Shown here: in pieces, positions 6,349-25,776 of the stretch
Numbering within the stretch: the stretch's first letter is position 1
Layout: every line of letters starts with the position of its first letter
Assembly (NCBI GenBank): GCA_044870765.1
Contig: JBIOZG010000059.1
Coordinates: 1-30,016, forward strand
Length of the DNA stretch: 30,016 bases
Origin: Nitrososphaeraceae archaeon
GTDB lineage: Archaea > Thermoproteota > Nitrososphaeria > Nitrososphaerales > Nitrososphaeraceae
Direction of reading: 5' to 3'
Notes under the pieces: model-generated
Databases searched by the model: none
What the model was told of the DNA's origin: nothing
Seen by the model: the letters and a program-made list of their open reading frames with translations, nothing else
Made by a program: the position numbers and the translations under genes

Positions 6349-7578
6349 TTGTATTTGTTAGACCTCATATCACAAATAAACACATCACAAATAAACACTG
6401 GCTTTTTAATTCAAGATTTCGCAGTAGTAATGATTGTAGCCGCTGTTATGGTATTTGTTACCCACAAACTAAAACAGCCGATGGTAATTGGATATTTATT
6501 AGCAGGTATGGTAATTGGACCATTTACTCCCCCATTTAGTCTGATACACGAAGTGGCCACAATCAATACGCTAGCTGAGCTTGGAATAATCATACTTTTG
6601 TTTGTAATAGGAACGGAATTTCCTATTACTAAGCTAAAGTCTGTTGGAAGGGTTTCAATGATTGTGGGTATTGCAGAATCATTGGGAACTTTGTTAATTA
6701 CGTTCTTCGTATCTCAAACACTTGGGTTTTCGCAATTTGACTCGATGTTTCTGGCACTGGCTATGTCTGTTACTAGTACTGTGGTTACAGTAAAGATATT
6801 AGAAGAATTGAACATGATAAATGAAAAATCAAGTGTATTGATAATGGGAATACTGATAGTTGAAGATGTTATAGTCATTACTACTTTAGGTATTCTACAA
6901 TCTCTGGCCTTGACAGCTGCAGTATCATTTGTCCACGTAATAATTTCGGTAGCAATAGTAGTGGGATTCATCGCTGGTATACTAATTCTAGGTTCGAGAT
7001 ATCTACCGCCACTGATAGACAAGCTGGCTAGAAAAACTGATTATTCTGTATTAATTATTGTTATACTTGGTCTCGCATTTGGTTTATCTTTTGTTGCAAT
7101 TGAGCTTGGATTATCACCAGTTATAGGCGCATTTTTAGCCGGTGTGCTTGTAGCAGAATCAAATAGTGCCGGAATAGCACGGGTCATAACTATCCCTCTT
7201 CGAGACGTGTTTGCAGCATTATTCTTCGTATCGGTAGGTGCCCTTGTGGATGTGTCAAAAATTCCTCTTTTTATCATTCCAGCTTTAATCCTTATTGTCA
7301 CGTCATTTATGGCAAAAATGTTGATTATCATCCCTGTCTTAATTAAAGCAGGATACGACACTACTACGGCCGTTAGAACAGGTCTTGGGTTGTCATCGGC
7401 CAGAGGCGAAATGTCATTGATAGTTGGAAAAGGTGGTCAGGATGTAGGCGCTGTCTCGTCATATGTTCTTCCTATTTTGGGAGTTGTTACAATTGTTACC
7501 ACTTTTGTTACCCCCTATATATTGAAAATGGGGGCTAAACTGAACATATCATCGGGTTTGAACCCTGACAAAAATTAA
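6349..7578 (+). CDS. Cation:proton antiporter, CPA2 (KefB/NapA-like) family, membrane domain only
   Basis: About 12-13 TM segments with motifs GYLLAGMVIGP, LAELG, TSTVV, GILIVED, GAFLAG and RGE. Confidence 0.92.
   Translation: MYLLDLISQINTSQINTGFLIQDFAVVMIVAAVMVFVTHKLKQPMVIGYLLAGMVIGPFTPPFSLIHEVATINTLAELGIIILLFVIGTEFPITKLKSVGRVSMIVGIAESLGTLLITFFVSQTLGFSQFDSMFLALAMSVTSTVVTVKILEELNMINEKSSVLIMGILIVEDVIVITTLGILQSLALTAAVSFVHVIISVAIVVGFIAGILILGSRYLPPLIDKLARKTDYSVLIIVILGLAFGLSFVAIELGLSPVIGAFLAGVLVAESNSAGIARVITIPLRDVFAALFFVSVGALVDVSKIPLFIIPALILIVTSFMAKMLIIIPVLIKAGYDTTTAVRTGLGLSSARGEMSLIVGKGGQDVGAVSSYVLPILGVVTIVTTFVTPYILKMGAKLNISSGLNPDKN
6369..6398 (+). repeat. Perfect 15-bp tandem duplication (ATCACAAATAAACAC x2; SQINT x2)
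   Basis: Read directly from the sequence; in frame at the antiporter N-terminus. Confidence 0.9.
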
Positions 7579-7656: not shown

Positions 7657-8610
7657 TTAGGAATGATTTAGGATACCGGCAACTCTTACGGTGTGTTCAT
7701 TAGGTGGAATAAATATGTTAGTTGTGATAGTCTTGCCATTGTTTGTAATCTGCTCATTCTGAACTTCCAGATTGTCCAAAAATATCGTTAAATTGTGACT
7801 GTTATTTGACTGTGGTATCTTTAAGGTGATGATACCTCCCAGTGGATTATAGTGATCAGCGGTAAAAGATATGCTATCCGTTGACTCATTATATCCGAAA
7901 TCGCTTATCTTTGCGACACTCTCCAAGCCATATGGCAAAAACTTTCCATTACCCAAGTCAAGAGTGTTAATTGGAGAGTTTGGATTAAATCCTGCACAAC
8001 TGAAATAATTTGCATTACTCGCTATAGCATAATCTGGCCTTGCTGAAAAATGCTTTATCTCTCCCGGATTTAGTGTTGAGATAGTATTAGATTTAATGGA
8101 ATCAATTTGGCTTCCATTCTTGTCATGAACTGATGCAAAAACGTTAATGTTCTTCACTACAACATTTCCTACGTTCTTCAGGCTTCCGACAAGTTCCTTG
8201 TTTTGGCCTACTGGGAAATTGGAATAATTTTGCACGATGACATTGTAATAAGGCTCATTTCCATTTTTCATTTCAAGTAAATACGGTTTACCTAATACTT
8301 CATGGTCGTCACTAATCTTGAATTTAAAGGGAGATTCCTTTCCCGGAAAAATAATTTTACTAAATGTAGTATCCCGTAATATGGTTTTTGAACCATCGAT
8401 TTTATTATGAACATCTAATCCTACTGTGACCTGTTCTGAAGTTGTTCCAAGATTTGTCACAACTCCTATGACATTTAATTTGCCATTAGAATCAACAAAG
8501 GAGGTTCCGGAAGAAATTTCGATATCCTCTCCATAAACAAAACTAAGGTTAAAAAGGCAAATATACGCAGTAAACAAAAAAGAAACCAGACTTATTAGGA
8601 TTAAATTCAC
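7657..8610 (-). CDS. Secreted/surface protein with FxLYD-like Ig domains
   Basis: Signal peptide; repeated 'G.V.N.G' strands, 'SVHDKNG' and 'PGKESPF/LNPGEIKHF' patterns. Confidence 0.7.
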   Translation of the reverse strand: MNLILISLVSFLFTAYICLFNLSFVYGEDIEISSGTSFVDSNGKLNVIGVVTNLGTTSEQVTVGLDVHNKIDGSKTILRDTTFSKIIFPGKESPFKFKISDDHEVLGKPYLLEMKNGNEPYYNVIVQNYSNFPVGQNKELVGSLKNVGNVVVKNINVFASVHDKNGSQIDSIKSNTISTLNPGEIKHFSARPDYAIASNANYFSCAGFNPNSPINTLDLGNGKFLPYGLESVAKISDFGYNESTDSISFTADHYNPLGGIITLKIPQSNNSHNLTIFLDNLEVQNEQITNNGKTITTNIFIPPNEHTVRVAGILNHS

Positions 8611-16892: not shown

Positions 16893-18281
16893 ATGGAGTC
16901 GTATCGAGTAGACAAAGACTCTTTAGGAGAGGTCAAAGTCCCGACTAATGCATATTATGGACCATTCACTGTGAGAGCTTCTAACCAATACAAAGTAACA
17001 GGTCAGAGCTCACACTTGAATATGATAAGGGCATTTGTAATGATAAAGCGTTCTGCAGCACTGGCAAACAGAGATTTAAAAATTTTGGCTGGAGAAAAAG
17101 CCGATGCAATAGTAAAGGCGTGCGATAAAATACTATCTGGAGATTTATTGGATCAATTTATAGTGGATGCTATTAATTCAGGTGCAGGAACGGCATTCAA
17201 CATGAATACAAACGAAGTTATCGCCAACAAGGCCCTAGAAATTAGTGGACACAAAATCGGTGATTATTCATTTATTAATCCAAACGATGATGTAAATATG
17301 TCTCAATCTAGTAACGATACATTTCCAACAGCTATGCATATTGCGTTATTAATGAATTTGAAAGAAGTTGAAGATTCACTTAATTTACTCATAGCTTCGC
17401 TTGAAAAAAAAGGGGTGGAATTTAAAGACGTCATTAAAATAGGCCGAACTCACCTAATGGATGCGATACCTGTTACACTTGGTGAGGAATTTAGTGAATA
17501 TGCCTTTTCTCTTAAGAGAGGTCTGGATAAAATTGTCGATACAAGTTCTGATTTAGAATATGTTGGCCTTGGGGGAACAGCGGTAGGGACGGGAGCGAAC
17601 GCACCTCCAGGCTACAGCGAGCTGGCGATCAAACATCTATCCCAAATATCGGGATTGAATTTAAAGCCTTCACAAAACTATTTCTTTTCCTTACAGAGTA
17701 AATTTGACATCACAATGTGTTCTTCTATTTTGAGGAACATTGCAATTGAATTAATAAAAATGTCAAATGATTTGAGGTTAATGGCATCTGGTCCTATAGC
17801 AGGGTTGTCCGAAATTACAATACCTGCGGTACATGCTGGCTCGTCTATAATGCCAGGTAAAGTAAATCCATCACTGTCGGAGTGTCTTAACATGATTTGT
17901 TTCATAATAGTAGGTAACGATGTTTCGGTTGCTCTTGCTGCTCAGTCTGGTCAATTTGAATTAAATGTGATGTTACCAGGAATGATAAAAGACATGTTGG
18001 AGTCGACTGATATGTTAAAAAACTTTCTGGGAGTTTATGCAACAAATATGATAGATGGATTGAAAGCAAATGAGCAGAAACTAGCTTCGTTTGTAGAAAA
18101 AAGTCCCATATTGATCACTCTGCTCAATCCGCATATAGGATACCTCAAAGCATCTGAGATATACAAGGAATCTATGACAACCAACAAAAGCATAAGAGAA
18201 TTGATCCTTGAAAAAGGACTGATGACAAAAGAAGACCTGGACAATGCCCTTTCAAAGAAAAAGATTCTTGGTTCAAAATAA
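16893..18281 (+). CDS. aspA: Class II fumarase/aspartate ammonia-lyase family enzyme (ATG start at 16893 preferred over 16875)
   Basis: Motifs DSLGEV.VP, GAGTAFNMN.NEV, SQSSNDTFPT, GRTHLMDA and signature GSSIMPGKVNP. GAGT is aspartase-like, but fumarase activity is not excluded. Confidence 0.85.
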   Translation: MESYRVDKDSLGEVKVPTNAYYGPFTVRASNQYKVTGQSSHLNMIRAFVMIKRSAALANRDLKILAGEKADAIVKACDKILSGDLLDQFIVDAINSGAGTAFNMNTNEVIANKALEISGHKIGDYSFINPNDDVNMSQSSNDTFPTAMHIALLMNLKEVEDSLNLLIASLEKKGVEFKDVIKIGRTHLMDAIPVTLGEEFSEYAFSLKRGLDKIVDTSSDLEYVGLGGTAVGTGANAPPGYSELAIKHLSQISGLNLKPSQNYFFSLQSKFDITMCSSILRNIAIELIKMSNDLRLMASGPIAGLSEITIPAVHAGSSIMPGKVNPSLSECLNMICFIIVGNDVSVALAAQSGQFELNVMLPGMIKDMLESTDMLKNFLGVYATNMIDGLKANEQKLASFVEKSPILITLLNPHIGYLKASEIYKESMTTNKSIRELILEKGLMTKEDLDNALSKKKILGSK

Positions 18282-18329
18282 TAATCGATATATTAATTTG
18301 TGTGATATTGATATGTTTTCGTGTTTAAT

Positions 18330-18355
18330 TCAATCGATCAATCAATCAATCAATA
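18330..18355 (+). repeat. (TCAA)n tetranucleotide microsatellite upstream of the 18380 gene
   Basis: TCAA TCGA TCAA TCAA TCAA TCAA. Confidence 0.7.
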
Positions 18356-18379
18356 AATGTATAGAGTGAGATCGACTAG

Positions 18380-18769
18380 TTGGTGGATAAAAGAATCTTA
18401 ATCACCTTATCCTTTGGAATATTGGTAACACTTGTTGTTTTTTTGGGTCTCCAGGATTCTCTAAATCGACCCTCGTTGTCGAGGTTGCCAATTTCTGCAG
18501 ATGCGGCCATAGTAAGGGTAATCAGCACGTACAATATATCAGAAGACCGGTTAGACAAGCCTCCCCGCTATGTTTATGTAAAGGCTGATGGGAATGTGTA
18601 TGAATCAAATCCGGAACAAAACAATATTGGAGAAATTATTGGTCATACGGATACTACTAATACTGGCGGTAGTCATTTTGCATGGGAAATAAATGACTTG
18701 CAAGGGAAGCAAAAGTACTATGTTGATGCGGTAATCGCCGAAATAATTTCTAACTCTAGTTATAATTGA
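18380..18769 (+). CDS. Membrane-anchored hypothetical protein (PepSY-like C-terminus); target gene of the integrated element
   Basis: N-terminal TM, and AWEI....YYVDA....I near the C-terminus. The last codons overlap attL. Confidence 0.75.
   Translation: MVDKRILITLSFGILVTLVVFLGLQDSLNRPSLSRLPISADAAIVRVISTYNISEDRLDKPPRYVYVKADGNVYESNPEQNNIGEIIGHTDTTNTGGSHFAWEINDLQGKQKYYVDAVIAEIISNSSYN
18748..18764 (+). mobile_element. attL: spacer TTCTAAC plus element arm TCTAGTTATA
   Basis: TAACTCTAG is repeated at 23782-23790. Arm 18755-18764 is the exact reverse complement of 23769-23778. Confidence 0.8.
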
Positions 18770-18868
18770 TTTAACTAATCTCTAATAATTTAGAATTTCT
18801 TAGTATGAAGGTAATAAGGGGTATTTTTCTTCCAAGCATTATTTGCTTAACTGGAATAATATTATCCC

Positions 18869-18924
18869 CCTTCCCTTGTTGGTGATTTAGATATTAAATT
18901 GAATGATTCATGATAATTTGTATG
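18869..18924 (+). promoter_or_regulatory. Promoter copy 1: CCTTCCC-N16-TATTAAA-N23-ATG
   Basis: Same architecture and spacing as 19056-19111 and 20250-20305. Confidence 0.6.
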
Positions 18925-19035
18925 GGCCAAACAATTCCATCGTATATCCTTGCATCAGACAGGAAAAAAAGAAAAAAGTCTCCAATTGTCGCTAAATGTT
19001 TGCATTTTGAATATAGAATTACTCGTTTCGATTAA
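18922..19035 (+). pseudogene. Truncated duplicate of the 19109 gene (MGQTIPSYILASDR..., 37 aa)
   Basis: About 100 bp (18866-18963) is a diverged direct repeat of 19053-19150. Similarity is lost after about codon 14. Confidence 0.75.
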
Positions 19036-19055
19036 AAGTATCCTTTTACCCTAAC

Positions 19056-19111
19056 CCCTCCCACACTGGTGATCTATGTTTTAAATTGAATGTTTCACGA
19101 TAATTTGTATG
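19056..19111 (+). promoter_or_regulatory. Promoter copy 2: CCCTCCC-N16-TTTTAAA-N23-ATG
   Basis: Same architecture as copy 1. Confidence 0.6.
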
Positions 19112-19351
19112 GGTCGAACTATTCCATCATACAGACTTGCATCAGAAAGAGAAAAAAGCAAATGGAAAATATTTAGAGAACAACTAGATAAAAGTGAACG
19201 AAAGGATTTTGATGAAATGATGTCTTATTCACGATTGTATAATACTTCGGGAGTAATGGTATGCAAACCTGTCTTATTGCATCCGATTCTTATGTCTATA
19301 ATATTTGAACATTATAAGCAATTAAAAAATATTGATCTACAGAAGGAATGA
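19109..19351 (+). CDS. Small helical MGRT(I/V)PS-family protein (resembles the PolB2-operon-associated small protein, arCOG07300-like)
   Basis: MGRTIPSYRLA..E..KW..FR..LDK.ERK.FDEM ... ILMSI.FEHYKQL. The family assignment is from memory. Confidence 0.75.
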   Translation: MGRTIPSYRLASEREKSKWKIFREQLDKSERKDFDEMMSYSRLYNTSGVMVCKPVLLHPILMSIIFEHYKQLKNIDLQKE

Positions 19352-19465
19352 AGGAAAAATAATCATCTAATTTGAATTCTTGATTGGATGTTCTATCAAG
19401 TTTGTGTTAACAGAAGGCACTAGAAACTATAAATATTATGTTACTTGGTAATAAAATAACAAAAA

Positions 19466-19567
19466 TTGAGACTGACCGGGCATGGAACAGTTACAGACGT
19501 CGCCATAGTTGTTGGTATAATGGTTGTGGTGGGAGTGGTCGTCGGGATTGTCTTCAGGCTCTTTTGA
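19466..19567 (+). CDS. 33-aa single-TM micro-protein (not in ORF track)
   Basis: TTG start; MRLTGHGTVTDVAIVVGIMVVVGVVVGIVFRLF*. TATAAATA at 19428-19435 lies upstream. Confidence 0.6.
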   Translation: MRLTGHGTVTDVAIVVGIMVVVGVVVGIVFRLF

Positions 19568-19783
19568 TTTGACATAAATATTTAATGGTGTTTTCTCAAT
19601 AATTTTAGATTGGATAGTCATTACCGTAAGAAAGATTACCCAATACTACGGTTGTGACTTAATCCAAGAAATACAAAGAGGCGCTAATTGTATTTTATTA
19701 TCTCTTTCGGTTGTTGTTTCTTTATTGGTATTCTGTGAAATGGTACTACTTTTTTATTGATCTGCCTAGTTTGAAGGTATTAT

Positions 19784-19927
19784 TCATTCCTTATTCTCCT
19801 GTCTCTCCAGTCTCCTCACTCTGTGATCGAGATCTCTAAGATGACACCCAAAGCACTTGAACTCGTCTGCTTCGGTGTTGAGATTGTATAGTTCTTTTAC
19901 TTCCGAACTGCATACAGGACATTTCAT
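19784..19927 (-). CDS. 47-aa zinc-ribbon micro-protein with a charged helical tail (not in ORF track)
   Basis: MKCPVCSSEVKELYNLNTEADEFKCFGCHLRDLDHRVRRLERQENKE*, with two CxxC motifs. Confidence 0.7.
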   Translation of the reverse strand: MKCPVCSSEVKELYNLNTEADEFKCFGCHLRDLDHRVRRLERQENKE

Positions 19928-20027
19928 TTCTTATTCTCAAATATTGAAACTCGAAGGATAAAATTCTTCGTCTGGACAGTCAAGCCCCTACTGGCGATCA
20001 TATATTTCTAGAATTTCGTCATTTAAG

Positions 20028-20085
20028 ACTGGTGGGGTCTAATATGACTGGATGAACAGGAAACAGCCAATATCCCACCACCAGA
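20028..20085 (+). repeat. Hairpin repeat copy 1 (ACTGGTGGG...ATGAACAGGAAAC...CCACCAG)
   Basis: Imperfect terminal inverted repeats; the interior is homologous to copies 2 and 3. Confidence 0.7.
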
Positions 20086-20249
20086 TGTTTAGGACTTCTT
20101 ACTACTGTGATGATCTATAAGTGAATATAAACCGAGGAATTTATGATAGCACCACAAAGAAACCGCCCTTCTTAATTTATGATCGTTAAGAGCAATAATT
20201 CAAATAAAAAGTTGATTTCTTCTCAAGCATTATCACGTATAATTTCACT

Positions 20250-20305
20250 CCCTCCCTGAATCGCACTTCATATTTTAAATCATTCTAACGCTAATTTCTC
20301 TTATG
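20250..20305 (+). promoter_or_regulatory. Promoter copy 3: CCCTCCC-N16-TTTTAAA-N23-ATG
   Basis: Spacing identical to copies 1 and 2. The upstream TTTCTTC(T)CAAGCATTAT is also shared with ~18826-18842. Confidence 0.6.
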
Positions 20306-20605
20306 AACGTAGAACGATTACTACAAAACGAAATTAAGACTCTCAAAGATGGATTGAAATTGAAAAAGACGAATCTACTTACAAGCGTAATCTTAAGAAA
20401 CGAGTAATATTGATAAATTGGGTTCTAGATAATATGAAAAATTCGAATACTGACATTTGTTCTGTCATTGAGACTAGAATGAATCAACTTATAGATAATA
20501 TAAATAGATTCTATTTTTGAATCCGATCCATTAGATAGTGAATTAAGAATCCTAGATTGGATTTTCTATCAGGATTGTAGTAACAAAATAAAAAGTTTGA
20601 AATAA
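20303..20605 (+). pseudogene. Frameshifted ~100-aa helical hypothetical protein
   Basis: Stitching across two frameshifts gives MNVERLLQNEIKTLK / WIEIEKDESTYKRNLKKRVILINWVLDNMKNSNTDICSVIETRMNQLIDNIN / DSIFESDPLDSELRILDWIFYQDCSNKIKSLK*. The ATG sits at the conserved promoter position. Confidence 0.7.
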
Positions 20606-20659
20606 TATAATATTAAATAAGAGTTATAATATCGATCATAAGATTTAAAAATAATAATT

Positions 20660-20727
20660 AAGCAAACTGATGGGCATCTAACTGGTCGAATAATGAACAA
20701 GAAACAACCAAGCCCCACCAGTCGCTT
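20660..20727 (+). repeat. Hairpin repeat copy 2 (AAGC-AACTGATGGG...ATGAACAAGAAAC...CCCACCAGT-CGCTT)
   Basis: Best-paired copy of the three. Confidence 0.75.
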
Positions 20728-20972
20728 GTGTTTAGACTTAGGGTTACTTGGTTGACGTATTATATTAATTGCTGAGGTAGAATGAGACATAAGATTTTGA
20801 CAAGAAATAGTATATATTTCTAAACTATTTGTTAGTAAGTCTTATTTTTTGAGCGCTCAATTAAATAATATCATATTCAGTCTAAAGGCTTACAGTGTAA
20901 CTTGAATTGTGTTGAGTTTAAACTATTTTATAATTTGTTGAGCATTATAACATAACGAAAACGAAGAGTCTT

Positions 20973-21031
20973 GAACACATAGTGGGCTGGGGGGTTCTTG
21001 TTTATCACCAATCAACTCCTCCCACCAGTTC
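20973..21031 (-). repeat. Hairpin repeat copy 3, inverted (GAACTGGTGGG...ATTGG..ATAAACAAGAAC...CCCACTA..GTTC)
   Basis: Its reverse complement matches copies 1 and 2 in both arms and loop. Confidence 0.7.
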
Positions 21032-21075
21032 TTCGAATCAATATATAAAATTGAGATTATAATATAAAAAAAGAA

Positions 21076-21336
21076 TTAGGGAGAAGTTGAAGGCGTACGG
21101 AACAACGCCATGACATCATCGCTGTAGTCATCAAGCAACGTTTGTATCTTGTCAGGATCAGGCGGATTTTGGGCTCCTACATCTAATACGGCCTTCTCGA
21201 ATTGAGTTGTTAGTTTTTTGAATTCTGAACAACCTGGACAGTCTCTATGTGCATACACTTGCTGAGCGTTCATTGTTACTATTGTGACAATAGTTACTGA
21301 GACTAGGATTGCCAGCACGATATAAATGGATTTCAT
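21076..21336 (-). CDS. Small secreted helical protein with an N-terminal HRDCPGC motif
   Basis: Signal peptide ending QQVYA; CxxC immediately follows the predicted cleavage site. Confidence 0.8.
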   Translation of the reverse strand: MKSIYIVLAILVSVTIVTIVTMNAQQVYAHRDCPGCSEFKKLTTQFEKAVLDVGAQNPPDPDKIQTLLDDYSDDVMALFRTPSTSP

Positions 21337-21473
21337 ATTTCATTTAGAAAGGATAATCTATTAAGATTTGAGGCTATTCTCCAGAACTGCCTCCTTTAAC
21401 CCAATCTCCTACGGTTAAAAAACTATAAAATAGACTTTAATTGGGTTCCAAAATTGGAGTGCTAGCGTTATCA

Positions 21474-21502
21474 GTTCCACCGAACCCGTGTGAAATTCAC
21501 AT
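21474..21502 (+). repeat. Block pair A-B (GTTCCACCGAACC, GTGTGAAATTCACAT)
   Basis: Recurs in swapped order at 22256-22286. Both blocks are short palindromes. Confidence 0.65.
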
Positions 21503-21595
21503 CATATTTCTTAATATTATAATGTAAAATACGTTACTATTTGAATATATTATATCCTTTAATTTCTAATTACCAATCTCAAATATTGAATCTAA

Positions 21596-22183
21596 CTAAC
21601 AGATTATATCGATGATAACGTCTTGGTGAAGCGATCCAGTAAAGCTATTAAGGCTAGCGTTAGTGGCACCGCCCGGCTTCATCTGGAAATAAACTGGTAA
21701 CGACTGTCCCCCGGCTATCCCACCTAATTGCGATCCAATATTTGATAAGGATTTTTTGTTATCATAATCAATGTTTGGGGCGATAGCGACATGAGTGTTC
21801 ATTGATGGGAATATAGTAGGGTTACCCGCCGCATCACTTTTCCAGTCACCTCCCTTAATCATAATTTTTGCAACTGTATCCGAAGTCCCTTCATTTTTAA
21901 GGATGACCACCCTCTGTCCGCTCACCTGACCAGGATTAACTTGTCCGTAATTCATTGGAACTCCTGATACTATTTGAAGTCCACATGAACAGTCTTCGAG
22001 GGTCATTTTACCAAGGACAGGGTCGAACGTATTACATACCTTCTGGATCATAGTTGTTGAAGGGGCATTTATTGTAACTCCGCTCTGAAGTTTTGCCGCC
22101 TCTACAAAAACATAGGGAAATAGGTACACTAGAAGGGCAAGTCCAAAAAATAGGAATATTACAAGCAGAACTTGGTTTTTCAC
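21596..22183 (-). CDS. Secreted beta-rich hypothetical protein
   Basis: Signal peptide, CGLQIVSGVPMNYGQ, and a C-terminal Cys that may form a disulfide. Confidence 0.8.
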   Translation of the reverse strand: MKNQVLLVIFLFFGLALLVYLFPYVFVEAAKLQSGVTINAPSTTMIQKVCNTFDPVLGKMTLEDCSCGLQIVSGVPMNYGQVNPGQVSGQRVVILKNEGTSDTVAKIMIKGGDWKSDAAGNPTIFPSMNTHVAIAPNIDYDNKKSLSNIGSQLGGIAGGQSLPVYFQMKPGGATNASLNSFTGSLHQDVIIDIIC

Positions 22184-22255
22184 AAGTAAAATTTATTTAT
22201 CAATCTTATATTTAACAATTTTTTGCACACTTGTTGTAATTCTTTAATTGGACTA

Positions 22256-22286
22256 GTGTGAAATTCCACATGGTTCCCACCGAACC
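22256..22286 (+). repeat. Block pair B-A (GTGTGAAATTCCACAT, GTTCCCACCGAACC)
   Basis: Permuted copy of 21474-21502. CTTTAATTGG precedes both copies (21435 and 22242). Confidence 0.65.
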
Positions 22287-22337
22287 GGAGAAACTATAAG
22301 TTCAATCTAAAGTTACTGCACAAACTTCATGTGAAAG

Positions 22338-22628
22338 AATGGGCTTAAAATTTATGTCAAATATGATTCACAAACCTCCGAGCCAAACAAAATTTAGAGT
22401 AACAAAAATGCAGATGCTTTCATAAATGAATTTGGTTCCTTATTTCAAATAGAATTAGAAGCACTTGAATCGTCTCCTTATTTTGAGGAGATGGTTAGAA
22501 GAGAAGTTGATATATTATATGATCCAAATGTCCATGAAGAAGCACTTAATCTACCAGAAAACAACCTAACGGAACGCGAAATCAAAGAAACAATTGTGGA
22601 AAAACTAAAGGAAAGATTTTCACTTTAA
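22338..22628 (+). pseudogene. Remnant of an acidic helical protein with an in-frame TAG
   Basis: NGLKIYVKYDSQTSEPNKI*SNKNADAFINEFGSLFQIELEALESSPYFEEMVRRE...KERFSL*, with no good start codon. Confidence 0.45.
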
Positions 22629-22636
22629 TTTTATTA

Positions 22637-23719
22637 TTATTTCCTTTTTCTCTGTTTCATTACTTCATTCTTAAGGTTCTCAAAGTCTGCCCTCAAAGAC
22701 TCAATTTGAGATTTTTCAATTTGGATTGTCTGCTCCAGTTTCAGTTTAAGCCTATTTTCTTCATTTATTGTCAGTAATCCTACTGCCTTCAAATATTCAT
22801 TTAACATCTCTTGCTCAGTTGGCCTATAGTAACAAGATGCCAATCCTATTTCATGCCCCAATAACTTTTCACGGATTTCAGGATTTATTCGAGAGTTGAC
22901 GCATTGTGTTGTGAAAAACTTGCGGAATCCGTGTGATCTAGATACATCTTGTCTAGTATAGTTTGAGGTATGATTGACAACCTTAACGCCGGATTTTATC
23001 AAAGCAGTATTAACAATTACCTTTATTGTATGTAATGTAATGCCTTTGCTCCTATTTCGGACCTGCTCTATGTCTGTGATATCGAACTGATCTCTAATCA
23101 GAAAAGATTCCTTGTGTAAATTCTCGCCATTTTGTTTTCTATATTCTAAATAGGAATCAATGAATGACGTACATTCCGGAGTACAGAAGGTATAATATTG
23201 CTCGTTGGTTCCTTCATAAACAATTATTTTATAAACCGAATCAACCTTTTCGATGTTCCTTAACCTTAGTAATGGTATAGCACCTATTCTAATTCCTGCA
23301 GAGGCCATTAAAAGTATAATACTCTTCATTCTCAGATCAGAAACATCTAGTATTTTTTTTATCTCCTTGTCAGTATAGGCCCTGTCTACAAATTTCTTAA
23401 ATTCACCTTTGAACATGTTAATTTTTTTCTTATTCAAAACTACATCATTCATTTCGTAGAAGTGGTAAATTGCACACAGAGACAGCGAAAGTGTATTGTA
23501 CGATAAACCTTTTTCTCTTAATGACATCAAATATTTTACTATTTGTTTCTGTGTATCCGTTAACAGAAGATCTGATAATTTGGTTACATTGCAAAACTTC
23601 ATGAATAATTTAATATTCTTCTCATAGGTTTCTTTGGTAACTTCGGACTTGATTGAATTTATGAAATTAAAGTATATTTCCTCTTCATTTTTGGAATTCT
23701 CACGGGTTAGGGTTGTCAT
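22637..23719 (-). CDS. Tyrosine recombinase/integrase (XerD-like, with N-terminal SAM-like domain and C-terminal coiled coil)
   Basis: Catalytic residues are intact: GIRIGA (R), HGFRK (HxxR), LLGH (H) and SCYY (Y). Confidence 0.95.
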   Translation of the reverse strand: MTTLTRENSKNEEEIYFNFINSIKSEVTKETYEKNIKLFMKFCNVTKLSDLLLTDTQKQIVKYLMSLREKGLSYNTLSLSLCAIYHFYEMNDVVLNKKKINMFKGEFKKFVDRAYTDKEIKKILDVSDLRMKSIILLMASAGIRIGAIPLLRLRNIEKVDSVYKIIVYEGTNEQYYTFCTPECTSFIDSYLEYRKQNGENLHKESFLIRDQFDITDIEQVRNRSKGITLHTIKVIVNTALIKSGVKVVNHTSNYTRQDVSRSHGFRKFFTTQCVNSRINPEIREKLLGHEIGLASCYYRPTEQEMLNEYLKAVGLLTINEENRLKLKLEQTIQIEKSQIESLRADFENLKNEVMKQRKRK

Positions 23720-23768
23720 AGCGATCCATACCTTATCGCCGTATATGATAACTAATTATTAAAGAGTA

Positions 23769-23800
23769 TATAACTAGACGGTAACTCTAGCTACAGGTAA
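23769..23800 (+). mobile_element. attR: element arm TATAACTAGA, spacer CGGTAAC, host arm TCTAGCTACA, followed by the displaced stop of the 18380 gene
   Basis: AAC TCT AGC TAC AGG TAA (NSSYR*) mirrors AAC TCT AGT TAT AAT TGA (NSSYN*) at attL. It lies 50 bp upstream of the integrase start. Confidence 0.8.
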
Positions 23801-23850
23801 TTGCATTGATTTAGCAACCAAATTATAAGACCTACAATTTGCATAATCTC

Positions 23851-24783
23851 ATGCAGGTTGAGGGTAGAATAATTATCTGCGATGCTATAGATGAAATAGG
23901 AATATCTATATTGAAAAAAGCGGGCCTGGTTGTCGATTACAAACCCGATGTTGAGCCTGATGAATTAATAACTTCTGTAAAAGACTGCGATGTAATAATA
24001 GTTAGAAGCAGAACCAAGATAACAAAGGACATAATTGACGCTGCTCCAAACGTCAAAATCATTGCTAGAGTAGGCGTAGGATTGGATAATATTGATACAA
24101 ATTATGCGGATACTAAGGGAATTAAGGTTTTGAATGCTGCTGAGGCTGCAATGAATGCAGTGTCAGAACTTGTAATAGGCCATATGATATCACTATGCAG
24201 AAATATTCCAAAGGCCAACGATGGGATAAAGGTAGGCAAATGGTTAAAAAAAGAACTCGTTGGTAGCGAGCTTAGAGGAAAATATTTGGGAATAATCGGA
24301 GTGGGAAATATAGGAAGAAATGTCGGTAGAATAGCAAAATGTCTCCGTATGAACTTGATAGGCTACGACATTTTTCCCATAAATCAAGAATATGTTAGAG
24401 AAGTAGGAATGATAAAAACGGATTTAAAGACGCTGCTTGAAAATTCAGACTTTGTCACGTGTCATGTGCCATTAACCGCTGAAACTAAACATCTGATAAA
24501 TTCAGAGACACTGTCGTACATGAAACCAACCGCCTATCTCATCAACACATCTAGAGGAGAAATAATAGATGAGCAATCTTTGTTTATTGCGTTAAGTGAA
24601 AAAAGAATTGCTGGAGCAGCACTCGATGTTTTCGAAGTAGAACCTCCAACCAACACCGAGTTACTACACTTGCCAAACATCATTTGCACCCCTCATGTTG
24701 CTGCTCAAACAAAAGAAGCGCAGGAGCTTGCTTCAACGGTCATAGCAGAAAAGGTAATCCAGACGCTGCTGACCAATAGATGA
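23851..24783 (+). CDS. serA: D-3-phosphoglycerate dehydrogenase-like D-2-hydroxyacid dehydrogenase, no ACT domain (start 23851 or 23839)
   Basis: Motifs VRSRTK, RVGVGLDNID, GIIGVGNIG, HVPLT, INTSRG, ALDVFEVEP and TPHV. Confidence 0.85.
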   Translation: MQVEGRIIICDAIDEIGISILKKAGLVVDYKPDVEPDELITSVKDCDVIIVRSRTKITKDIIDAAPNVKIIARVGVGLDNIDTNYADTKGIKVLNAAEAAMNAVSELVIGHMISLCRNIPKANDGIKVGKWLKKELVGSELRGKYLGIIGVGNIGRNVGRIAKCLRMNLIGYDIFPINQEYVREVGMIKTDLKTLLENSDFVTCHVPLTAETKHLINSETLSYMKPTAYLINTSRGEIIDEQSLFIALSEKRIAGAALDVFEVEPPTNTELLHLPNIICTPHVAAQTKEAQELASTVIAEKVIQTLLTNR

Positions 24784-24890
24784 AGTATTAAATCAATCTC
24801 AAAAACGATTCATTTTTGCTCTTTTTTATTCGTATTATGGCGACTCAACAAAATACAGATATTAAGGTCTTGTCTGGAGTTATCTGTTAT

Positions 24891-25349
24891 ATGCATCAGT
24901 ACATGGCCGACATGTGGACGAAGATGTGGAAAACCAACTCGGAGGAATTAAAGAGTAGAGCAATGGCATGGAGAAAAGAACCCACCATACATAGAGTAGA
25001 CAAACCTAGCAGACTGGATAGAGCTCATAAACTGGGGTACAAAGCAAAACAGGGCATCATTGTAATTCGCACAAAAGTTGGAAGAGGCGGAATGAGAAAG
25101 CAACGTCCCGTATCTGGTAGAAGGCCAAAGCACCTAGGTGTAGTTAGAATTAAGCAAGCAGAAAGTATGAAGCTAGTTGCACAACGAAGAGTAAACGAAA
25201 AGTATCCTAATATGGAAGTTCTGGGTTCTTATTTCCTTTATAAAGATGGTAAAAACATATGGTACGAAATTATATTGGCAGACCCTTCTCATCCATCAAT
25301 AGCAAGAGACGTGGAATTCAAAAAGAAATTAAAGGCGTTTGCTAAATAA
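24891..25349 (+). CDS. rpl15e: 50S ribosomal protein eL15 (start revised from 24816)
   Basis: Motifs RLDRAHKLGYKAKQG, RGGMRK.RP..GRRPK, KYPNMEVLGSY and YEIILADP.HP.I. Confidence 0.95.
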   Translation: MHQYMADMWTKMWKTNSEELKSRAMAWRKEPTIHRVDKPSRLDRAHKLGYKAKQGIIVIRTKVGRGGMRKQRPVSGRRPKHLGVVRIKQAESMKLVAQRRVNEKYPNMEVLGSYFLYKDGKNIWYEIILADPSHPSIARDVEFKKKLKAFAK

Positions 25350-25356
25350 ATTGATG

Positions 25357-25776
25357 TTAATTAGAATAACTATTAATTTTTTCAGTTAGCAAATCTACTA
25401 ATTTTATTAATTCTTGGCTTGCAATGTCATTATCAAATGTGACATAATAGTATCCCCCCGATCGAATCGGAATAGTCAAAGTTATCACCTTCTGATTTAC
25501 GGTTAGAGTGTAAAGCGTGTTGCCCAAGACAGGATCAAATGCTTTTCGTAACTGATTACGGGTAGCCTCAATAAAATGTTCATTTATTGCATGTTCAACA
25601 TTAAGTAATGGTACAAGTCCAGCACGTAACTGTCCGGCAATTGTCCTCCCAAAATTATTTATCATACCAACGTACCGCACTTTTTGTGACGATAAGAGTA
25701 AATCATGACATCTCTCTTTGTTCTTGATAGACTCCCCTCGTGCAAGCAGATTGTTCTCCTTTTTTTCCATAAGCAA
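25357..25776 (-). CDS. Thaumarchaeal roadblock/profilin-like hypothetical protein (DUF6659-like)
   Basis: C..LL....VRYVGMINNFGRTIAG..R.G..PLL ... R..FD..LG pattern. Confidence 0.7.
   Translation of the reverse strand: MLMEKKENNLLARGESIKNKERCHDLLLSSQKVRYVGMINNFGRTIAGQLRAGLVPLLNVEHAINEHFIEATRNQLRKAFDPVLGNTLYTLTVNQKVITLTIPIRSGGYYYVTFDNDIASQELIKLVDLLTEKINSYSN

Follow-up and report, generated by a model that had tools for sequence, protein, structure and literature searches.

A small cryptic integrated element at a genus-wide insertion hotspot of Nitrososphaeraceae, with a dyad-symmetric attP and a tentative one-sided-homology mode of integration

Background

The 30,016-nucleotide stretch of DNA analyzed in this study (the window; contig JBIOZG010000059.1, positions 1 to 30,016, of the Nitrososphaeraceae archaeon assembly GCA_044870765.1) carries a tyrosine-recombinase element of about 5 kb, which sits at the end of a gene for a 129-aa protein. 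The closest described systems are the integrated elements of Thaumarchaeota. The survey of Krupovic (2019, PMC6563490), in the parts drawn on here, reports 74 of them, most being cryptic integrated elements (CIEs) with an integrase and no other signature gene. Their att sites have a minimum of 8 bp and a median of 17, and 14/68 elements lie in 3'-distal parts of protein genes. The smallest CIE (2.6 kb) consists of an integrase and three small genes, NitEve-E2 substitutes its own stop codon for that of its target, and orthologous target genes are entered by unrelated elements (same parts of PMC6563490).

Other tyrosine recombinases offer partial parallels, again as described in the parts of the sources considered. 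A review of archaeal enzymes repeats the 8-bp att minimum and gives dif as an 11-6-11 dyad (PMC8371274). The integrase gene of SSV-type systems contains the attP and is split when the element integrates (PMC7253208, PMC8371274). For IntDOT of the Bacteroides element CTnDOT, the site of the first cleavage is set by where in the overlap the two sequences agree, other positions may be mismatched, and the attDOT integrates in an orientation determined by the overlap region (PMC2817482).

Results and discussion

Integration into the last codons of a 129-aa gene

Window coordinates are used throughout, and G000 is the window's own genome. When the query 17000-25500 was compared with 41 genomes (the own genome, 24 congeneric ones and 16 from elsewhere in the order), several of the congeneric genomes had the two flanks of the element side by side. 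There the left flank extends to 18762-18765, the right flank starts at 23782 or a few bases on, and the two overlap by 11-12 nt at the core. A sequence-only reading of the window had delimited the element and predicted its empty site. The adjacent flanks confirmed these boundaries, and the predicted site was matched letter for letter, with breakpoints as predicted, in G012 (locus L003, flanks 96 % identical; ...GAAATAATTTCTAACTCTAGCTACAGGTAATTGC...) and likewise in G020.

The motifs and positions given in that reading were all found in the window, with TTCTAACTCTAGTTATA at the left end (18748-18764) and TATAACTAGACGGTAACTCTAGCTACA at the right end (23769-23795). An exact 9-bp direct repeat, TAACTCTAG, is present at 18751-18759 and 23782-23790, and in the extended repeat (18751-18764 vs 23782-23795) 12/14 bases match. 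The attL (18751..18764, no strand) consists of the core at 18751-18759 followed by element-type bases, its breakpoint being set by the empty sites in G012 and others. The attR (23769..23795, no strand) contains the second copy of the core at 23782-23790. The element body (18760..23781, no strand) measures 5,031 bp from core to core and has a low coding density and a GC content of 0.31-0.38, like the flanks.

The product of the target gene (18380..18769, + strand, as given in the ORF list) is 129 aa long, has a hydrophobic N-terminal segment and matched no family in Pfam, PHROGs or NCBIfam (nine ORFs were scanned with each of the first two and four with NCBIfam). Orthologues were found in 37/40 genus genomes, and where the site is empty the protein ends in ...SNSSY(K/R)-stop, that is, Ser-Asn-Ser-Ser-Tyr-(Lys/Arg). 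The window copy of the gene instead ends in element DNA, from which it takes its final codons, TAT AAT, and the stop TGA (18767-18769). The original gene end is orphaned at the other side (23791..23800, + strand) and reads ..C TAC AGG TAA, with TAC AGG TAA at 23792-23800 and the original stop at 23798-23800; in G012 a TAC AGG TAA-type end follows in frame directly after ...TCTAG.

The element contains an intact tyrosine recombinase gene (22637..23719, - strand; 360 aa), whose product has a catalytic domain between a SAM-like N-terminal domain and a conserved coiled-coil tail of ~50 aa at the C-terminus. The catalytic domain matched PF00589 with 38.1 bits (cut-off 27.1) and the SAM-like core-binding domain matched PF13495 with 27.8 bits (cut-off 27) and PF02899 with 22.8 bits (cut-off 22.3); the PHROG match was phrog_1. 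In an alignment of 11 homologues, R144, H263, R266, H289 and Y297 are invariant and K164 is nearly so. The RI, HxxR, H and Y motifs are present in the alignment to XerA chain 4a8e, which is, together with 5hxy, the nearest PDB structure. The integrase, described as intact in the sequence-only reading, is full length with a full set of catalytic residues. No replication, capsid, packaging, casposase or conjugation/transfer genes were recognised in the Pfam, PHROG and NCBIfam scans, which very small or novel genes could escape, and this also agrees with the earlier impression that replication and transfer genes are not visible. The integrase was the only functional family match among the scanned ORFs; three other PHROG matches were weak and to families of unknown function.

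Like the thaumarchaeal CIEs NitEve-E2 and NitUzo-E2, as far as they are described in the parts of PMC6563490 considered, the window element has an integrase and direct repeats checked against an empty site, and no viral or conjugative signature genes. It fits this class in every tested feature and differs from the CIEs of that account in its genus and its target gene. The expectation in the sequence-only reading that archaeal elements usually enter tRNA genes is overstated for this phylum, given the 14/68 elements in 3' protein-gene ends and the att sites down to 8 bp in the same source. We are nearly certain that the element is a CIE with site-specific insertion in the last codons of the 129-aa gene. 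When this identity is combined with the integration mechanism proposed below, the probability of the whole is about 0.6.

A palindromic attP reconstructed from the element ends

The element ends were joined by a script, and one perfect 10/10 inverted repeat with a 7-nt spacer was found across the joint, as the sequence-only reading had reconstructed it. Its arms are TATAACTAGA, found at 23769-23778 in attR, and TCTAGTTATA, found at 18755-18764 in attL. In attL the spacer is the host-type TTCTAAC (18748-18754); in attR it is CGGTAAC (23779-23785) and is followed by the host arm TCTAGCTACA (23786-23795). The two spacers are identical at 4/7 positions. Counted on the window sequence, the host arm TCTAGCTACA matches at 8/10 and CCGAAATAAT at 4/10, so the claim that the host site has only one good half-site was borne out.

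As a control, 20,000 random joins of window DNA were made. Of these, 4/20,000 had a perfect 10-nt repeat that spanned the joint with a spacer of 5-9 nt, and 125 had a match of at least 9/10. The 30-kb window contains one other perfect 10-nt inverted repeat with such a spacer (at 6604, spacer 6 nt), and mononucleotide shuffles of the window gave a mean of 0.27. The 10-7-10 dyad is unlikely to have arisen by chance.

The integrase ATG (23719) is 49 nt from the dyad arm. The block in between (23720..23768, - strand; ...TTTAATAATTAGTT...) is conserved upstream of many homologues and, being promoter-like in sequence, is the putative integrase promoter.

The same ends could be read as those of a DDE-type transposon whose 10-bp inverted repeats are subterminal and whose target duplication is the 4-bp TAAC, since TAAC flanks a segment that starts with TCTAGTTATA and ends 3 nt past its reverse complement. 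However, the Pfam and PHROG scans showed no transposase, and the only recombinase is the tyrosine integrase. The right repeat is 3 nt from the end and thus not terminal, the host sequence after the supposed duplication resembles the left repeat at 8/10, which fits a shared core rather than a duplication, and the same site recurs across the genus. A DDE-type origin was rejected on gene content and is given next to no probability.

A genus-wide insertion hotspot

For scoring of the site, the end of the target gene and the sequence preceding the serA-like gene were collected from all 40 genus genomes. The gene end was conserved enough in 27 of them; the other 13 went unscored because the gene end diverged, the gene was truncated at the edge of a contig or no match was obtained. 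The site was occupied, at precisely the same position, in 12 genomes (G000, G009, G016, G053, G005, G052, G021, G014, G015, G044, G024 and G023) and the site was empty in 15 (G012, G020, G046, G049, G010, G004, G048, G007, G043, G008, G019, G041, G017, G011 and G022). Both alleles, on different contigs, were found in G019 and G052. The site is a genus-wide hotspot and is used by several element types. Apart from the window's own element, every occupant is without an intact integrase.

Search of the own genome for a second copy of the element or of its ends gave none; only internal modules and a 51 %-identical integrase paralogue at a site of its own were found. The description of the element as transposon-like with relaxed specificity could therefore not be upheld, as one site is occupied in 12/27 genomes by several element types and no second copy exists in the genome. 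Elements of the CTnDOT/Tn916 type use several sites with a loose consensus and carry coupling sequences, conjugative transfer genes and a recombinase with an arm-binding N-terminal domain. A relaxed-specificity transposon of this kind, with loose half-sites and heterologous coupling sequences, would account for junctions that differ at 3/7 spacer positions and for a host site with one good arm only. Against it stand the fixed site, the lack of any other copy of the element or its ends in the genome, and the absence of reciprocal coupling-sequence footprints among the junctions. Unlike CTnDOT and Tn916, moreover, the window element is 5 kb long in an archaeal host, shows no exchanged coupling sequences, and has no transfer genes found and no N-terminal arm-binding domain detected in the integrase by the Pfam, PHROG and NCBIfam scans. 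This explanation is largely refuted and very improbable.

It was also considered whether the element is an inert relic that entered long ago and is now decaying and immobile, the empty sites being lineages that were never occupied. Its low coding density, an internal duplication with a pseudo-copy (see below), the loss of the integrase from all other occupants and the lack of a circle junction in metagenome contigs (see below) are in favor of a relic. On the other hand, the integrase is full length with all catalytic residues, both arms are perfect, and a remnant is present in a more distant relative (87 %) but not in the closest ones (flanks 96 % identical), whose sites are empty. The two metagenome-assembled genomes with both alleles, and more weakly an empty allele beside element contigs in one soil run, also speak against it. 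We consider a relic unlikely.

The latter observation comes from public soil and rhizosphere runs (X1-X6), which were examined as contigs at a likeness threshold of 93. In run X6, one contig (depth 26) has the empty form: it skips 5,031 bases and connects 18750 with 23782, with 9 ambiguous letters. It has one differing letter in 519 nt of flank, and the element contigs of the same run have depths of 2.5-4.3. Because the short side of the joint is only 21 letters long and the threshold was 93, the contig is a hint and not proof. Together with the genomes above, both alleles appear to coexist in natural populations. A joint 18697-24280 in X1 looks like an artefact (short side 21 letters, no shared letters) and was ignored.

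In a metagenome scan with the attR pattern, 3 relevant cases were obtained among 80 sequenced matches of at least 120. Among the matches listed, contigs L126 and L136 have an identical attR and one is of the G005 type described in the next section. In addition, a 938-letter contig of run X2 matches the right flank from exactly 23782, and its 419 upstream letters match nowhere in 18300-24300; it may come from a coexisting strain that has another occupant at this site.

Two element polarities and one-sided spacer identity

Two element types with a common integrase module in opposite polarity were observed at the hotspot. In the window type (G000, the remnant in G009, G023 and G044), the integrase promoter block adjoins attR. 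In the G005 type (G005, G021, G053 and G019:C46), the integrase module is inverted and adjoins attL; window 23444-23772, for example, matches G053 in reverse, directly beside attL. Towards the integrase, both types have the same layout: an AACTAGA-like arm, seven bases, the arm TCTAGTTAYA and the promoter. The AACTAGA-like arm is TATAACTAGA in G000, TATGACTAGA in G009, TTTAACTGAC in G023 and CTCAACGAGC in G044 (decayed), and at the far end of the G005-type elements it is GTTAACTAGA in G019:C46, TTCAACCAGA in G005 and G021, and TTCAAGCAGA in G053. This far arm was taken as support for the dyad because it has no reason other than protein binding to mirror host codons.

Whichever the polarity, the identical bases of the central region (TAAC/TAAT, or CTAAT) are on the side of the arm pairing with the good host arm, and the 1-3 mismatches border on the other arm. 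Where the host has TTC, the window-type elements have CGG, TGG, CGG and CAG, and those of the G005 type have TAC in three cases and CAC in one.

Paralogous integrases and a second element

Integrase homologues (E-value ≤1e-30) were found in 31/40 genus genomes, with up to 16 per genome, many of them broken. The sequence-only reading had expected paralogues to have similar 10-7-10 sites upstream. Search of the 40 genus genomes for the arm-N7-arm pattern with ≤3 mismatches gave 18 places, compared with 10 for a reversed-pattern control, which is a weak enrichment, and an integrase homologue adjoins 5/16 fetched loci.

One look-alike, TATAACTAGA-N7-ACTTGTTATA, lies 88 nt upstream of the own-genome paralogue on contig C11. 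It was rejected as an att site since it is host DNA, 14 nt outside the true 16-bp core and ~29 nt from the end of the empty-site homology. It is contained in the empty sites of G017, G049, G005 and G020 and is not conserved in more distant hosts of the same element type. A second look-alike (G041:C88) is also host DNA, colinear across the genus, with the element boundary 18 nt further on. As both are host DNA and the C11 element has an attP without the dyad, the expectation was refuted, and a shared site of the paralogues was dropped as support for the dyad.

The paralogue on C11 belongs to a second integrated element of the own genome, which spans a contig break from G000:C11:50741 to the contig end and then G000:C15:1-7598. 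Its true att is a 16-bp direct repeat, AAGGAAGATAGTACTA (C11:50741-50756 and C15:7583-7598), ~95 nt from a tRNA gene. Its full-length integrase is 51 % identical to that of the window and has this different site of its own. The element type is present in at least seven other genomes; we refer to the C11 type (integrase 48-51 % identical) as family A.

The C-terminal coiled-coil tail of the window integrase (22637-22800, residues ~305-360) is near-identical in integrases that are otherwise 48-52 % identical (loci L014 and L041), which suggests recombination between integrase genes. A stray fragment of this tail was found at G000:C11:52552-52641. Furthermore, a broken integrase fragment at G000:C11:24741-25211 (locus L017) adjoins a tRNA gene that appears to contain an intron, and is probably the remnant of a tRNA-targeting relative. 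No relatives of the window integrase were found in IMG/VR by searches with the single protein and with the 11-sequence alignment.

A proposed mechanism and its weighing

The crossover lies somewhere within the 9-bp core TAACTCTAG. In the mechanism that we propose, integrase protomers would bind the attP dyad arms TATAACTAGA and TCTAGTTATA around the 7-bp central region. In the chromosome, the right arm alone, made of the Ser-Ser-Tyr codons of the target gene, would be a good site. The exchange would start at the TAAC/TCTAG boundary, where attP and attB are the same. The three central bases next to the other arm, which differ (CGG vs TTC), would either be tolerated in a second exchange or never be exchanged, and in the latter case the junction would be resolved without a second exchange, for example by replication. 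The side on which the central region is identical would set the orientation of insertion. Tolerance of spacer mismatches by the integrase is possible.

More generally, we tentatively suggest, with clearly less than even confidence, a clade of XerA-like thaumarchaeal integrases that would use a 10-7-10 core and need identity only in the 4-5 central bases near the good half-site. The side of identity would decide the orientation, so that sister elements of both polarities at one hotspot would be accounted for. Such integrases would be an archaeal counterpart of the IntDOT rule, perhaps with a single strand exchange, which is considered because the mismatched bases never change sides.

Several points weigh against this mechanism. 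TTC is found in 12/12 attL and 15/15 empty sites, element-type bases occur at the mismatched positions in 0/12 attL and 0/15 empty sites, and every attR with an AACTAGA-like arm keeps the element-type bases. In the occupants of G016 and G014, TTC is present on both sides and there is no AACTAGA-like arm. The reconstructed attP of family A has an ordinary 16-bp identical core with no dyad, and therefore the dyad core is not a family-wide trait. The related elements at the site are non-independent samples; independent events are few. Since none of the other occupants keeps an intact integrase, their arms may be decaying relics. No circle or back-joint was seen on the contigs of four soil runs, which says little because contigs drop rare forms. 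An exact search for the perfect dyad as a free attP returned unrelated bacterial matches, one IMG/VR contig and one Nitrosopumilus contig, with no integrase within 600 nt of any. The cleavage sites and the binding are themselves predictions from the sequence.

A heteroduplex across a 7-bp mismatched overlap, as with Tn916 and CTnDOT, is expected to give the reciprocal outcome about half the time. That the three mismatched bases never change sides argues against coupling sequences of that type. Three explanations fit the fixed sides: exchange of one strand pair at the identical boundary with the junction resolved otherwise, an overlap within TAACTCTAG that is offset from the dyad, or selection on the Ser codon that hides the other outcome.

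The second of these corresponds to classical homology-dependent recombination of the lambda Int kind. The overlap of 6-8 bp would then lie wholly inside TAACTCTAG, the three mismatched bases would be outside the exchange, and the palindrome would be an offset binding aid or a by-product of an attP that copies the gene end. This agrees with CGG and TTC never swapping sides, with the identity blocks of all occupants, which intersect on TAA(C/T)TCTAG, with the plain core of family A, and with the thaumarchaeal att sites of only 8 bp (PMC6563490, in the parts considered). However, no other symmetric arm pair can be read in the sequence around any 6-8 bp window of the core. The sole dyad is the 10-7-10 one, which is improbable by chance and is kept in two element types of opposite polarity. 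We regard the classical explanation as rather unlikely.

Thus, the dyad-centred mechanism with one-sided homology is put forward at slightly less than even odds, while the identity of the element is held close to certainty; the two are graded separately because independent events are few and the other occupants are without an integrase. With regard to the sequence-only reading as a whole, its observation was confirmed and its interpretation is supported in part.

Comparison with other tyrosine recombinases

The window integrase resembles IntDOT of CTnDOT in being a tyrosine recombinase with a putative 7-bp central region that is identical only near one predicted cleavage site (PMC2817482, in the parts considered). 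It resembles archaeal XerA, which acts on dif, as a simple recombinase with a putative dyad site and in its nearest curated model and structures. The best model was archaeal XerA (NF040815) with 71.9 bits; as this is far below the cut-off of 220, the integrase is not a XerA orthologue. Unlike XerA, it is element-borne and multicopy and has an extra C-terminal coiled-coil tail and a 10-7-10 site. With the SSV1-type ('suicidal') integrases it shares being an archaeal element-encoded tyrosine recombinase. In contrast to them, the window attP is 49 nt upstream of the integrase gene and the 360-aa ORF stays whole.

Elements that exploit Xer, such as the CTX phage, use the host XerCD, a folded single-stranded attP and one-sided homology in the central region. 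The one-sided homology is common to both cases, and single strand exchange followed by replication would keep the mismatched bases on their own sides; the difference is that the window element encodes its own integrase. In the parts of the thaumarchaeal account considered (PMC6563490), the dyad-symmetric attP, the one-sided spacer identity, the two polarities and the 12/27 occupancy are not found. We present the opposite-polarity dyad arms and the one-sided spacer identity as new, though inferred, features. The hotspot and the two-polarity pattern are not claimed to be unpublished, as the literature search was not aimed at the hotspot.

Element body, cargo and flanking region

Near the left end, a tandem duplication (18868..19162, + strand) consists of two copies of 108 nt with 80 % identity, the first being a truncated pseudo-copy of the start of an 80-aa gene. 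Contigs of runs X1, X2 and X5 skip 18917-19108 within it. The 80-aa ORF (19109..19351, + strand) belongs to a large family of small Nitrososphaeraceae proteins (PF26485 in the precomputed annotation, absent from the local Pfam copy). This family has 835 relatives at E-value ≤0.001 and is multicopy in the own genome and the genus; further copies are on four G000 contigs, C55, C12, C35 and C28 (two pieces).

A 47-aa ORF (19784..19927, - strand) has two CxxC pairs and is zinc-ribbon-like. The region around it (19755-19973) matches copies in other genomes at 93-96 %; the host flanks of those genomes reach only 77-81 % identity. An 86-aa ORF (21076..21336, - strand) begins with a signal or anchor segment and matched no family, and the genome contains four paralogues of it at other loci. 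The 195-aa ORF (21596..22183, - strand) has an N-terminal hydrophobic segment, is single copy in the genome and is regarded as hypothetical cargo; no Pfam, PHROG or NCBIfam match was obtained for its product, and the Atlas gave unnamed clusters only. Scanning 18300-24000 with Rfam revealed no credible RNA (one match to a human lncRNA model, E-value 0.22).

Several internal modules recur elsewhere in the own genome and in other genus genomes. Because of this recurrence, and because some modules are 93-96 % identical despite flanks of 77-81 %, the element is seen as a mosaic of parts circulating among mobile elements.

Upstream of the 86-aa and 195-aa genes (21474-21501 and 22258-22290), two common motifs were observed, CCACCGAACC and the near-palindrome TGTGAAATTCACA. 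Their order differs between the two genes, and they may act as a shared operator. By eye, a recurring C-rich box (CCCnCCAC/CCCACCAG-like) with an A/T-rich stretch ~10-15 nt after it was also seen, mostly before small ORFs, at 18866-18900, 19053-19090, 19990-20020, 20075-20100, 20244-20280, 20711-20740 and 21018-21050. These boxes could be element-specific promoters or binding sites.

Downstream of the element lies a host gene for a serA-like D-2-hydroxyacid dehydrogenase (23839..24783, + strand; PF02826, E-value 3.8e-61, and PF00389). About 1 kb downstream of the first hotspot there is a second one at 24797-24866, in the stretch that separates the stop of the serA-like gene (24783) from the next ORF (24816). 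Alignment to the window breaks there in G016 (~10.7 kb), G021 (~5 kb) and G005 (~5 kb), and the two sides share 17 bp in G016 (query 7851-7867).

Conclusions

The element is one more small CIE of soil ammonia oxidisers, a class that is already catalogued, and it is unusually well delimited. Its exact empty site, apparently coexisting alleles, intact integrase and attP reconstructable to 27 bp make it a practical candidate from which to develop a minimal integration module or an integrating vector. Such archaea are without genetic tools, and small elements are named as wanted starting points (PMC6563490, in the parts considered). If the one-sided homology is true, mismatch-tolerant or single-exchange tyrosine recombination would extend to Archaea, and the shortness of thaumarchaeal att sites would be explained.

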